IMG/VR virus record: IMGVR_UViG_2778261249_000001
Coordinates: 1 to 6,136 of that record
Direction: 5' to 3' (one strand)
Length of the DNA stretch: 6,136 nucleotides
Source: a virus
Taxonomy: Duplodnaviria > Heunggongvirae > Uroviricota > Caudoviricetes
The notes beneath the pieces are model-generated. The model saw nothing but the letters and a program-made list of their open reading frames with translations. It made no database searches and was not told the origin of the DNA. The position numbers and the translations under genes were made by a program. Of this stretch, positions 3,257-4,256 are shown in pieces (the stretch's first letter is position 1; each line of letters starts with the position of its first letter).

Positions 3257-4117
3257 TCACCTGTCGAAAAACACGTAGCCAGTTTTCGATACGGTGATTG
3301 CGGATGATGGTTTGGATTGTGGTTGAATAGTTTCTGGCTTCTCGTCGTTCCAGCGCTGACCGTTCAGGTAGCTCGATGGTAACAACCTGTCGAATCCGAA
3401 CTGCTTACCATTCCTGCATGCGATGTCTTCTGCCAGCATCGTGGCAAACTCGCTTGCCGTACCCTTGGTAGTTTTACGCCATTCCCTGAACTGTGTTCTG
3501 AATGCCGTAGCTGCGTTTTTCTTCCCGGCTTTCCGCATGCCTGCACACCAGAATATTTCCTCGAATGCCTTGTCGGTTTCTTCGTGACGGTCAGGTGATT
3601 TTTCACACTCCGTCCGAACACTTTCGGACATAGTGTTTTTATTATTTCTTTTTTCTTTTGTAATAGTTTCTTTTGTGTGTCCCTGTTTTGGTGACAGCGC
3701 TGTCACCGTTTTGGTGACACTTTTTGTCACCAATGCAGTGACATTATCACCAGTGTAGTGACATCCTTCGATTTGCCATTCCTCGATGTTCTTGTTAGGC
3801 CCGATTTGCTGGCCTTCGCGAAGGATAACCTTCATCGCGATAAGCTCATTCTTGGCCTTGTTTACCTTCTGTCTTGGCAGCCTGGTAATTTGAGCTAACT
3901 GACTATCAGAGATGCGATCCATCTTTTTACCGTAGCCGTATGTTTTACGGCATATGGCGTGGGCAACCTTGCTCTGATTTTTCGTTAAATCAGCGCCGAT
4001 AAGCTCTTCATACAGGGCATTTGCAAGACGGGTATAACCATCTTCAACTTCTGCCACACGACGCTCCACAGGCCGTTGTGAAGGCCTTAAATGTGTTACG
4101 GTTGCAAGATTACTCAT
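3257..4117 (-). CDS. O: Replication initiator, lambda O family (N-terminal iteron-binding domain O-like, C-terminal domain diverged from lambda O)
   Basis: ORF-track ORF. The N-terminal part (…[27 protein letters not shown]…[22 protein letters not shown]…GPNKNIEEW…[14 protein letters not shown]…) aligns by eye with lambda O. The C-terminal 120 aa do not resemble the lambda O P-binding domain. AGGAG lies 8-9 nt upstream of ATG 4117. Confidence 0.9.
3635..3680. other. AT-rich tract adjacent to the iterons; candidate DNA-unwinding element of the phage origin
   Basis: gtttttattatttcttttttcttttgtaatagtttcttttgtgtgt is strongly A+T rich and lies immediately 3' of the iteron block in gene orientation, the same arrangement as lambda ori inside O. 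Confidence 0.55.
3690..3763. repeat. Origin iterons: about seven copies of GGTGACA/TGTCACC arranged as inverted pairs inside the O-like gene
   Basis: GGTGACAgcgcTGTCACC (3690-3707, perfect 18-bp palindrome), GGTGACActtttTGTCACC (3713-3731), AGTGACAttaTCACC (3737-3751) and AGTGACA (3757-3763). Heptamer starts are about 11-12 bp apart. They lie in the inter-domain linker of the O-like ORF, where lambda carries its ori iterons. Confidence 0.65.
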
Positions 4118-4256
4118 GACCTTTCTCCTTCTGCATCAGCTTCACTTTTTCCAACTCAGCCCGGAATCGACCAGGCTGCTTGAAGCTGGACAGGAAGCGA
4201 TCACGTAGTATGTGTTTGTGAATTTTGTCCTGGTAAGGACTGAGTTGTTTTGTCAT
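4110..4256 (-). CDS. Candidate 48-aa basic protein between cII and the O-like gene ([48 protein letters not shown])
   Basis: ATG 4256-4254 has a strong RBS (AGGAG, then 5 nt). This RBS and the first codons (ATG ACA AA) are those of lambda O as I recall it, after which the sequence diverges. Its TAA stop (4112-4110) overlaps the O-like ATG (4117-4115). Hand-translated with no internal stops. Below the ORF-track cutoff. Confidence 0.45.

Follow-up and report, generated by a model that had tools for sequence, protein, structure and literature searches.

A 48-codon frame between cII and the replication initiator gene of a lambdoid phage is very probably the catalogued gene orf48 (DUF2740)

The short minus-strand ORF between the cII gene and the O-like initiator gene of the window (the whole 6,136-nt stretch of phage DNA analysed here) is, on sequence comparison, very probably the catalogued lambdoid gene orf48 (P22 orf48, HK022 orf48, HK620 hkaW; Pfam DUF2740) and a genuine protein-coding gene. 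It belongs to an already known family and is neither a new ORF nor a junction artefact. The frame starts with ATG at 4256-4254, runs through 48 sense codons, and ends with TAA at 4112-4110, 147 nt in total. Within the rightward early (pR) operon, it is the first cistron past cII and the oop terminator. The product, of 5.8 kDa, has a calculated pI of 10.1, and K, R, and H make up 15 of its 48 residues; the K/R/H-rich ORF with a TAA overlapping the O-like ATG, as described in a preliminary description made from the sequence alone, was thus confirmed. Because a run of 48 open codons is expected by chance with a probability of ~10% ((61/64)^48, our own arithmetic), openness by itself is not significant. 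The case for a gene rests on the conservation data instead. The features of the region are compiled in Table 1.

Table 1. Coordinates of orf48 and neighbouring features in the window.
Feature	Position	Strand	Basis and remarks
lambda-derived mosaic segment	4249..4695		blastn vs lambda 37900-40400, 98.2% identity
cII, lambda type, 97 aa + stop	4289..4582	minus	PHROG 191 CII-like activator, E=4e-41; 98% nucleotide identity to lambda cII
oop antisense RNA	4267..4343	plus	by homology to lambda, 98% identity; coordinates transferred
oop promoter pO	4231..4259	plus	by homology; -35 TGGTAA 4231-4236, 17-nt spacer, -10 CATAAT 4254-4259
orf48 Shine-Dalgarno GGAG	4262..4265	minus	sequence; 5 nt ahead of ATG; same RBS as lambda O
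orf48 (DUF2740) CDS	4110..4256	minus	ORF list, Pfam PF10872 match, nucleotide identity to HK022 orf48, in-frame pN/pS
predicted stem 5' arm, orf48 codons 16-20 (nt 47-58)	4199..4210	minus	ViennaRNA MFE and pair probabilities
initiator Shine-Dalgarno AAGGAG	4125..4130	minus	sequence; within orf48 codons 43-44
predicted stem 3' arm, orf48 nt 136-146, with initiator AUG inside	4111..4121	minus	pair probabilities
ATGAGTAA overlap, initiator start codon over orf48 stop codon	4110..4117	minus	sequence; 171/173 loci
O-like replication initiator, 286 aa, N-terminal Phage_rep_O	3257..4117	minus	PF04492 E=1e-37, TIGR01610, PHROG 'replication initiation O-like'

The window ORF matched PF10872 (DUF2740) with 99.4 bits against a cut-off of 27 (E=9e-29) over profile positions 1-43 of 43, and 12/12 divergent members of the orf48 family alignment matched DUF2740 as well. 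All invariant residues of the 20-letter DUF2740 core are present in the window protein, and the family is 46-48 aa long in three family alignments. The genomic slot is also that of DUF2740, with a cII-like gene followed by the oop terminator and then by orf48 overlapping the initiator start, a layout likewise seen in P22, HK022, an Erwinia phage, S9-5, and the gathered loci. The window copy is nucleotide-identical to those of HK022 and HK620 and shares 85% amino-acid identity with P22 orf48; VT2-Sakai H0097 is another named member of the same PF10872 family. Nothing of substance distinguishes these copies from the window orf48, and only the combination of neighbours is particular here, namely a lambda-type cII, an Sf101/mEp043-type O, and a primase-helicase. 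This combination recurs in phage vB_EcoP-720R6, with 99.8% identity over a 401-nt query (window 4000-4400).

Phage records, many of them by now, have carried the gene as an annotation ever since P22 and HK022 were sequenced, and among 5,426 complete E. coli genomes PGAP has named a 'DUF2740 family protein' in 400 (~7%), Stx-phage relatives included. The word 'unannotated' in the preliminary description therefore did not hold, given P22 orf48, HK022 orf48, HK620 hkaW, the Pfam family, and the PGAP name in E. coli. Pfam at E<=10, NCBIfam, and PADLOC weak-match scans returned nothing for orf48 besides DUF2740. A profile search of 1.84 billion representative proteins gave 17 matches, all to the same narrow Enterobacterales-prophage family or to spurious repeats (P0057, P0063), and no remote family. 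The PHROG 1913 HMM also matched strongly (E=3e-28) and carries the label 'tail protein'. We rejected this label, since the gene lies in the early rightward operon, in the interval between cII and the replication genes, at all but one of 254 loci (the exception being the chimeric record L005); this placement suggests that 'tail protein' is an annotation error.

An intact frame of 47-48 codons was found in 249 of the 251 loci free of contig-end cuts. The two exceptions were a frameshift in an A-run (L173) and, in an unverified chimeric record (L005), a fusion. At the outset, homologues with stops or frameshifts had been proposed as the sign that would speak against a gene, and among the 251 loci just these two cases turned up. 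The 147 nt were unchanged in 78 of the 95 sequences first gathered (94 loci and the window), despite differing flanks. Diverged yet intact alleles occur in phages of Salmonella, Klebsiella, Citrobacter, Atlantibacter, and Erwinia, and alleles down to 58% identity retain the length, the frame, and the overlap with the initiator gene. Alleles track the host genus: coliphages share the E. coli allele with 100% identity, and Salmonella phages likewise share the P22 allele.

We then compared substitution classes among 31 haplotypes, the synonymous/non-synonymous check that the preliminary description had suggested. Summed pairwise pN/pS was 0.29 in the orf48 frame. The two remaining sense frames gave 1.15 and 1.31, and the three antisense frames gave 1.02, 0.47, and 1.26; the antisense frame with 0.47 is the one that shares the orf48 wobble positions. 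The in-frame value of 0.29 against 1.0-1.3 in four of the five other frames indicates that the amino-acid sequence is under selection. Pairwise dN/dS was 0.10-0.50 at dS up to ~1.3 or more. Selection at the amino-acid level was strongest in the core, codons 16-39 (pN/pS 0.23, pS 0.43); variation was synonymous only at 13 codons, and the nucleotide haplotypes within an allele were all synonymous (10/10 for the P22 allele, 4/4 for the E. coli allele).

Similarity to lambda runs from 4695 to 4249 of the window (lambda 38247-38693). It takes in nutR, cII, oop, and the Shine-Dalgarno of O, and ends after precisely 8 nt of the O gene itself (ATGACAAA). The retention of the lambda O ribosome-binding site and first codons followed by divergence, as the preliminary description had it, is borne out by this alignment, and the right-hand end of the lambda segment lies 8 nt into orf48. 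At the ribosome-binding site, ACAGGAGTAATTATG is conserved in the alignment with lambda, HK022, P22, and the Erwinia phage. The same orf48 was found with at least three cII types and two to three initiator types, in all major combinations, and the HK022-type initiator showed no detectable similarity to the Phage_rep_O initiator of the window. An identical orf48 between three cII types and two unrelated initiators marks a shared unit at the mosaic boundary, and the whole 147 nt behave as one between the immunity/cII module and the replication module.

These observations bear on the reading of the frame as a recombination scar, born at the joint of lambda cII-oop and a foreign replication module and open by chance, with no gene. 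The end of lambda homology 8 nt inside the ORF would fit such an origin, as would the chance expectation for an open run of this length. However, phages whose cII is not of the lambda type and phages with unrelated initiators have this ORF too, and the diverged alleles with preserved length, frame, and overlap exclude very recent horizontal spread of one sequence as the whole source of the conservation. The low pN/pS is confined to the orf48 frame, and DUF2740 is a curated Pfam family with members annotated since P22 and HK022. We regard a scar as extremely improbable. Of the two possibilities left side by side in the preliminary description, the real small gene whose stop overlaps the initiator start stands, on 249/251 frames, pN/pS 0.29, and 171/173 overlaps, and the scar falls. 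Nor was the ORF 'created at the cII/O mosaic junction', as the same 147 nt lie beside different cII genes and unrelated initiators and diverged intact alleles exist elsewhere.

The evolutionary direction implied by that phrase is probably the reverse. The O start of lambda is identical to the orf48 start in its Shine-Dalgarno, spacing, and first 8 nt (ATGACAAA), and the pO -10 lies over the start codon in both. In lambda, however, this start leads straight into O, and lambda O (MTNTAKI) aligns from codon 3 with the O-like genes that follow orf48 (MSNLATV); its start thus reads as orf48 ATGACAAA plus O codon 3. From this alignment, the lambda layout looks as though orf48 had been lost in frame between two imperfect repeats, ATGACAAA and ATGAGTAA. 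Lambda has been described as 'naturally missing' orf48, which was placed between oop and gene 18 or O, and in lambda/P22 hybrids orf48 travels with genes 18 and 12 (Hayes 2012, PMC3349717). HK97 offers a further comparison. Its gp53 (53 aa) shares with orf48 the slot after cII/oop, the RBS, and the first ~11 codons (ATGACAAAA...TACCAGGA, the pO region), and its 3' end overlaps the O start by 14 nt, whereas the body of gp53 is unrelated to orf48 (hhalign probability 0.6%). By this comparison, gp53 is a positional analogue of orf48 and not a homologue.

The 5' end of orf48 coincides with the putative oop promoter. On the complementary strand, the orf48 ATG falls inside the -10 of pO and codons 7-9 contain the -35; by homology, the first ~26 nt of orf48 double, on that strand, as pO. 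In the P22 record, the oop promoter is annotated at 32346-32374, which corresponds to orf48 nt -3 to +26. The -35 has been placed inside P22 orf48 or lambda O, and lambda oop at -10 to -90 relative to the O ATG (Hayes 2012, PMC3349717). A strict consensus promoter scan of the window did not call pO, which makes it a weak promoter. A terminator-like hairpin with a T-run at 4313-4340 corresponds to the oop terminator. When the whole window was compared with Rfam at E<=1, a chance Mu-gpT-DE match inside the O gene was the sole result, with no match in the orf48/oop region and no oop model matching.

The overlap with pO raises the question of whether conservation here reflects DNA or RNA elements (the promoter, a recombination 'linker', or RNA structure) rather than a protein. 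The position of the annotated -10/-35 region in the first ~26 nt, the sharing of just those first ~11 codons with HK97 gp53, the 78/95 nucleotide-identical sequences amid different flanks, and the mosaic junctions at both ends of orf48 are all in keeping with this. Constraint on nucleotides, however, lowers both classes of change, whereas here the substitutions concentrate at synonymous sites in one frame. The start of the ORF is also rebuilt where the -10 changes; in the 47-aa alleles ATA replaces the ATG at the lambda position, and the frame is restored by another ATG that has arisen 4 nt downstream. Together with the lack of an Rfam family match, this makes nucleotide elements alone a very unlikely explanation for the conservation of orf48.

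At the 3' end, ATGAGTAA forms the last 8 nt of orf48, and the initiator ATG (4117-4115) begins 5 nt upstream of the orf48 stop. The motif was kept in 171 of 173 loci examined, with the variant ATGGATAA in one more, and among loci with different initiators similarity stops directly past it. The last ~20 nt of orf48 also carry the initiator Shine-Dalgarno. Residue 44 may be D, E, G, or R, yet every allele has an SD-like purine run here (AAGGAG, AAGAGG, AGAGGT, AAGGGT, or AAGGAT). In predicted structures, the initiator AUG pairs with codon 18 (CGU) with p=0.6-1.0 in 10 of 11 divergent representatives. The natural orf48 mRNA has a more stable fold than its dinucleotide-shuffled versions (z=-3.4). 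The control by synonymous recoding was mixed: the natural fold is more stable than 87-99% of the recodings, and occlusion of the initiator AUG in the window is no greater than in 55% of them. A covariation test of the predicted stem found no compensatory changes, both arms being nearly invariant. One MFE fold paired the orf48 start with the initiator start; we discarded this pairing, because it is absent in the partition function and the starts of P22 (ATGCCA) and of the 47-aa alleles (ATGAAA) would disrupt it.

We infer from this arrangement that orf48 and the initiator are translationally coupled. Ribosomes ending orf48 would be handed to the initiator start, so that the two proteins are made together, and translation of orf48 would unwind the predicted stem that joins codons 16-20 to the initiator AUG, helping to open the initiator start. 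The initiator has a good SD of its own, with which it could initiate independently.

Comparable leaders are known from plasmids. In Tap-RepA (R1/IncFII) and RepY-RepZ (IncI-alpha/IncB), the peptide sequence is dispensable and an antisense RNA directly blocks translation of the leader. Like these, orf48 is a short ORF that ends at or over the initiator start, has that start in a predicted stem, and faces an antisense RNA (oop) from just upstream, whose 5' end by homology abuts the orf48 SD. By analogy, orf48 might be a pure leader in which the act of translation alone matters, through ribosome delivery and stem melting, and the peptide has no function. The near-universal ATGAGTAA, the predicted sequestering of the initiator AUG in most representatives, the unusually structured mRNA, and the kept SD amid variable C-terminal residues are consistent with this. 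On the other hand, a leader of irrelevant sequence should show pN/pS near 1, unlike the 0.23 of codons 16-39, and the synonymous-only codons, the length fixed at 47-48 codons, and a confidently predicted two-helix fold point to a selected peptide. The initiator's strong SD and the stem without covariation also weaken the case. Unlike the plasmid antisense RNAs, which directly block the leader, oop has its complementarity at the 3' end of cII rather than at the orf48 RBS. A functionless peptide is unlikely on balance, and the likeness to Tap/RepY may describe a possible mode of working, not membership.

AlphaFold2 modelled the orf48 product as a helix at 7-23, a loop, and a helix at 28-44 (mean pLDDT 80), which predicts a basic two-helix hairpin. 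A PDB profile search, Foldseek against PDB, and Foldseek against BFVD viral models gave no significant match; these structure searches are uninformative, because a helical hairpin is too generic. A ribbon-helix-helix DNA binder was considered and rejected, with no HMM support and just ~6 residues ahead of helix 1. The searchable literature held no experiment and no published function for orf48, and no paper on DUF2740 or the peptide motif; 'hkaW' returned noise. The name 'orf48:gnarl1' (Silas et al. 2025) was dropped as a functional lead, since it follows that paper's own numbering and denotes an unrelated gene of Klebsiella phage KpV79.

Among 174 orf48 loci, many of them close relatives and counted with kinship ignored, none had a lambda P-type loader, 47 had a primase-helicase, and ~119 had a DnaB-like helicase. 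In the best 80 loci per scan, again close relatives with kinship ignored, orf48 was present at 80/80 with the window-type initiator versus 0/80 with lambda O. Within this sample, orf48 accompanies replication modules that encode their own helicase and never lambda O/P. HK97, with a P22-like O and a DnaB-like helicase but the unrelated gp53 in the orf48 slot, indicates that orf48 is not obligatory for modules of this kind.

We propose, tentatively, that the 5.8-kDa basic hairpin acts in trans, and that its most likely job, at somewhat below even odds, is that of an accessory of replication modules that come with a DnaB-family helicase or primase-helicase of their own. It would then act on a factor shared by these phages or by their hosts, and not on the initiator. 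The occurrence of one orf48 protein with two unrelated initiators argues against a specific initiator partner.

A trans-acting protein could instead address a target outside replication, either the lysis-lysogeny circuit (cII stability, FtsH, or oop, in a cIII-like manner) or host take-over and anti-defence. The gene sits directly past cII and oop, its 5' end overlaps pO, unrelated initiators are served alongside an identical orf48 protein, alleles that follow host genus would fit a host target, and the predicted small, basic, helical product resembles many phage host-directed peptides. Yet the overlap fuses orf48 to the initiator in 171 of the 173 loci examined (172 with ATGGATAA) and never to cII, from which a gap of 18-35 nt separates it. 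It travels with genes 18 and 12 in lambda/P22 hybrids (PMC3349717), and it is absent from lambda-type O/P modules bearing the same cII-oop segment. PADLOC gave no match for it, with a library of host defence systems rather than phage counter-defence genes. A target outside replication is a real but minor possibility, behind the replication accessory that we favour.

A broader and more speculative idea, which we consider rather doubtful as a whole, is that orf48 is a two-in-one control element of own-helicase lambdoid modules. It would gate the initiator in cis through stem opening and termination-reinitiation at ATGAGTAA, supply the promoter of the convergent oop with its 5' end, and act in trans as a hairpin on a host or helicase-related target; lambda would then be a derivative that lost the element by the in-frame ATGACAAA-ATGAGTAA deletion on adopting the P loader strategy.

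P22 is among the best-studied phages, and orf48 is a conserved, selected small protein in it. The association with own-helicase modules, the predicted stem over the initiator start, and the overlap of the 5' end with pO may serve as leads for the control of lambdoid replication.

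The window runs in the reverse of the usual lambda map, and the rightward early operon therefore lies on the minus strand. The preliminary description of the 48-codon ORF (orf48) between cII/oop and the O-like replication initiator gene left the strand unstated, and was accurate on the coordinates, the match to lambda as far as 8 nt of O and the stop/start overlap, since the ORF coordinates, the overlap with the initiator gene and the blastn match all agree. Window 4695 to 4249 is 98.2% identical to lambda 38247-38693 (blastn), a segment with nutR/tR1, cII and oop that also takes in the ribosome-binding site of O and ends exactly 8 nt into that gene; past this point, blastn of the window against lambda gave no further match. 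The orf48 product (5.8 kDa, calculated pI 10.1) contains eight lysines, four arginines and three histidines. Because the initiator gene starts before the orf48 stop, ATGAGTAA is common to both genes.

Features of orf48 and its surroundings (window coordinates unless stated)
Feature	Position	Strand	Remark
orf48	ATG 4256-4254 to TAA 4112-4110	-	48 sense codons
GGAG	5 nt upstream of orf48 ATG	-	
Initiator gene start	4117-4115	-	286 aa, Phage_rep_O domain N-terminal
Initiator Shine-Dalgarno	orf48 codons 43-44		
pO (oop promoter) -10, CATAAT	4254-4259	+	over orf48 start codon; homology with P22 and lambda
pO -35, TGGTAA	4231-4236	+	in orf48 codons 7-9; homology with P22 and lambda
oop terminator hairpin	4313-4340		oop RNA runs leftward to hairpin
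Predicted stem arms	orf48 nt 47-58 and nt 136-146		
Iterons	3678-3763		inside O-like gene
AT-rich stretch	3636-3677		adjoins iterons
35-codon ORF	3146-3253	-	overlaps initiator and primase-helicase genes
Primase-helicase	1269-3149	-	626 aa

The 35-codon ORF between the initiator and primase-helicase genes had no family match and is annotated as hypothetical in ON470605 (locus L001, 4148-6151), where the primase-helicase, intact in the window, is given as two CDSs. The four ~19-bp palindromic iterons (TGTCACC-N5-GGTGACA type, 20-24 bp apart) and the AT-rich stretch correspond to the lambda-style origin expected within an initiator gene of this kind.

orf48 had been called unannotated, and it in fact belongs to an already known family. 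Its product matches Pfam PF10872 (DUF2740) with 99.4 bits (gathering score, 27) and PHROG 1913 with E=3e-28. An identical ORF in HK022 (GenBank U02466) is annotated as the orf48 gene product and noted as well conserved in P22, whose reference genome carries orf48 at 32349-32495, with an 8-nt overlap with the initiator gene 18, and the oop promoter at 32346-32374, across the orf48 start. The gene is named hkaW in HK620 and H0097 in VT2-Sakai, is a hypothetical protein in the near-identical phage vB_EcoP-720R6 (99.8% over 401 nt), and is labelled 'DUF2740 family protein' (RefSeq/PGAP) in 400 of 5,426 complete E. coli genomes. The searchable literature assigns it no function: Hayes et al. (PMC3349717) describe lambda as naturally lacking orf48 and aligned the ATG of lambda O with that of orf48, and two further papers mention it only within cloned or replaced P22 segments. 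'orf48:gnarl1' (Silas et al. 2025) was rejected as a functional lead, being an unrelated Klebsiella-phage gene. PHROG 1913 is labelled 'tail protein', and the label has passed to RefSeq phage annotations (e.g. NC_002371 [P22 orf48], NC_019706, NC_027398, NC_070949); it is almost certainly an error, because orf48 is an early-operon gene, placed between cII and the genes for replication.

Phage records, GTDB genomes and IMG/VR contigs yielded 254 loci with orf48 sequence, three of them cut by a contig end. A check for stops or frameshifts in homologues, which would have spoken against a real protein, brought up only two exceptions among the remaining 251, and a 47-48-codon frame is intact in 249. 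One exception (L173) has an additional A in an A-run; the other (L005) is a fusion in an 'UNVERIFIED_ORG' chimeric record. In the latter (ON886116, Salmonella phage PSP2-22, 2438-2908), the orf48 frame has lost its stop and continues into a DUF4752 protein. Its neighbours include both T7-like genes (ligase and RNA polymerase) and lambda-like ones (kil and cIII), and the record appears to be a chimera assembled from two phages. The gathered loci encode 17 distinct proteins in 32 nucleotide haplotypes; all 10 haplotypes of the P22 allele give one protein, as do all four of the E. coli allele. Nei-Gojobori estimates of dN/dS for pairs of nine divergent alleles ranged from 0.10 to 0.50, and dS reached about 1.3 or more. 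When all pairs of 31 haplotypes were summed, the annotated frame had a pN/pS of 0.29, against 1.15 and 1.31 for the two remaining sense frames; the antisense frames gave 1.02, 0.47 and 1.26, the value of 0.47 belonging to the frame that has its wobble positions in common with the sense frame. The signal was strongest in core codons 16-39 (0.23). In the 47-aa alleles, which are Klebsiella- and Citrobacter-type (L097-L103, L006 and L012; columns 18-28 of the allele alignment), the ATG at the lambda position has become ATA, and the ORF is preserved by a new ATG lying 4 nt downstream. The same change gives the other-strand pO a perfect -10, TATAAT; selection thus appears to act on promoter and ORF independently. 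The intact frames, low in-frame pN/pS, synonymous haplotypes and rebuilt ATG argue that selection acts on the amino-acid sequence and not on the DNA alone. A recombination scar that happens to stay open does not fit alleles that keep the frame while diverging to 58% protein identity (an Erwinia phage). Some alleles are mosaic within the 147 nt, with P22-type ends and an E. coli-type centre or the reverse (e.g. L156, L155 and L127 versus L105 and the window), and recombination therefore also occurs inside orf48.

The proposal that orf48 was created at the cII/O mosaic junction is contradicted by its distribution. Among the first 95 sequences (94 loci and the window), 78 copies are nucleotide-identical to that of the window, and identical copies are flanked by no fewer than three types of cII and by two main replication modules, with every combination represented. 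One module, as in the window, has a Phage_rep_O initiator and a Toprim/DnaB-like primase-helicase; the other has an HK022-type 'O', without the Phage_rep_O domain, and a DnaB-like helicase. The two initiator types have no detectable similarity (BLASTP E=1.5). Similarity stops immediately after ATGAGTAA in loci with different initiators, and starts just after the cII stop in phages with other cII genes. These varied neighbours and the breaks at both ends indicate that orf48 is its own unit at a module boundary and not a by-product of one particular junction. In four loci (L029, L033, L052, L074), the first long ORF after the initiator encodes a 164-aa protein (MMSLEVGEYIPGYEGKYSV...) in place of the primase-helicase; this may be a homing-endonuclease insertion, which its N-terminus resembles.

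The lambda O gene opens with ATGACAAAT... (MTNTAKI), as if the start of orf48 ran straight into an O gene (ATGAGTAAT..., MSNLATV) from codon 3 onward: ATGACAAAT consists of ATGACAAA, the start of orf48, and one further base, the T found in codon 3 of O-like genes (lambda locus L095, 787-795, versus window 4256-4249 and 4117-4109). Residues 3-7 of lambda O and of the window's O also align with each other. This suggests that the lambda layout arose when orf48 was lost in frame between two imperfect repeats of 8 bp, the reverse of the direction implied by the preliminary description. HK97 has another small ORF in this slot, gp53 (53 aa; L336, NC_002167, 221-382), which has a 14-nt overlap with the O start and only its first ~11 codons, the pO -10/-35 region, in common with orf48, the remainder being unrelated; this fits the promoter as the common element. 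The slot thus comes in at least three forms among lambdoid phages: empty, with orf48 or with gp53.

The 3' end of orf48 also serves the initiator. Residue 44 varies by allele (D, E, G or R), but the nucleotides stay purine-rich (Shine-Dalgarno variants AAGGAG, AAGAGG, AGAGGT, AAGGGT and AAGGAT). The final GHE* is fixed by ATGAGTAA, which is kept in 171 of 173 loci, with ATGGATAA in one more. The predicted fold of the orf48 mRNA is unusually stable (z = -3.4 versus dinucleotide shuffles; MFE below 87-99% of synonymous recodings for five representatives), and in 10 of 11 divergent representatives, which carry three different downstream initiators, the initiator AUG is predicted to pair with orf48 codon 18 (CGU) with probability 0.6-1.0. 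A ribosome on orf48 would open this stem. No compensatory changes were found in the stem, because both arms are almost invariant, and in the window itself the AUG is no more occluded than in half of the synonymous recodings; structure-mediated coupling is for these reasons a reasonable prediction rather than a result. A mainly cis-acting leader seems improbable to us. Translational coupling, proposed earlier, is probable. Overall, the part of the earlier interpretation that stands is a real small gene, probably coupled to the initiator.

AlphaFold2 (23-sequence alignment) predicted two helices, residues 7-23 and 28-44, joined by an FKQPG loop (mean pLDDT 80), with basic residues on both; a search for sequence or structure relatives found none beyond DUF2740. 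It is the initiator gene, and never cII, to which orf48 is physically fused, and in hybrids between lambda and P22 it stays together with genes 18 and 12 (Hayes et al., PMC3349717). The initiator is unlikely to be its specific partner, because one identical protein accompanies unrelated initiators. A lambda P-type loader was found in none of 174 orf48 loci, which encode a primase-helicase (47) or a DnaB-like helicase (about 119); orf48 is present in 80/80 loci with the window-type initiator and in 0/80 lambda-O/P loci (the best 80 of each scan), an association drawn from close relatives in counts that ignore kinship. Our tentative best guess is that orf48 is an accessory of self-helicase replication modules, acting on a shared host or helicase-related target; against this, the HK97 slot holds a different small protein. 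The alleles track host genus, and a host- or lysogeny-directed role is a weaker candidate. The helicase association, the predicted stem over the initiator start and the overlap with pO are leads towards the role of orf48.
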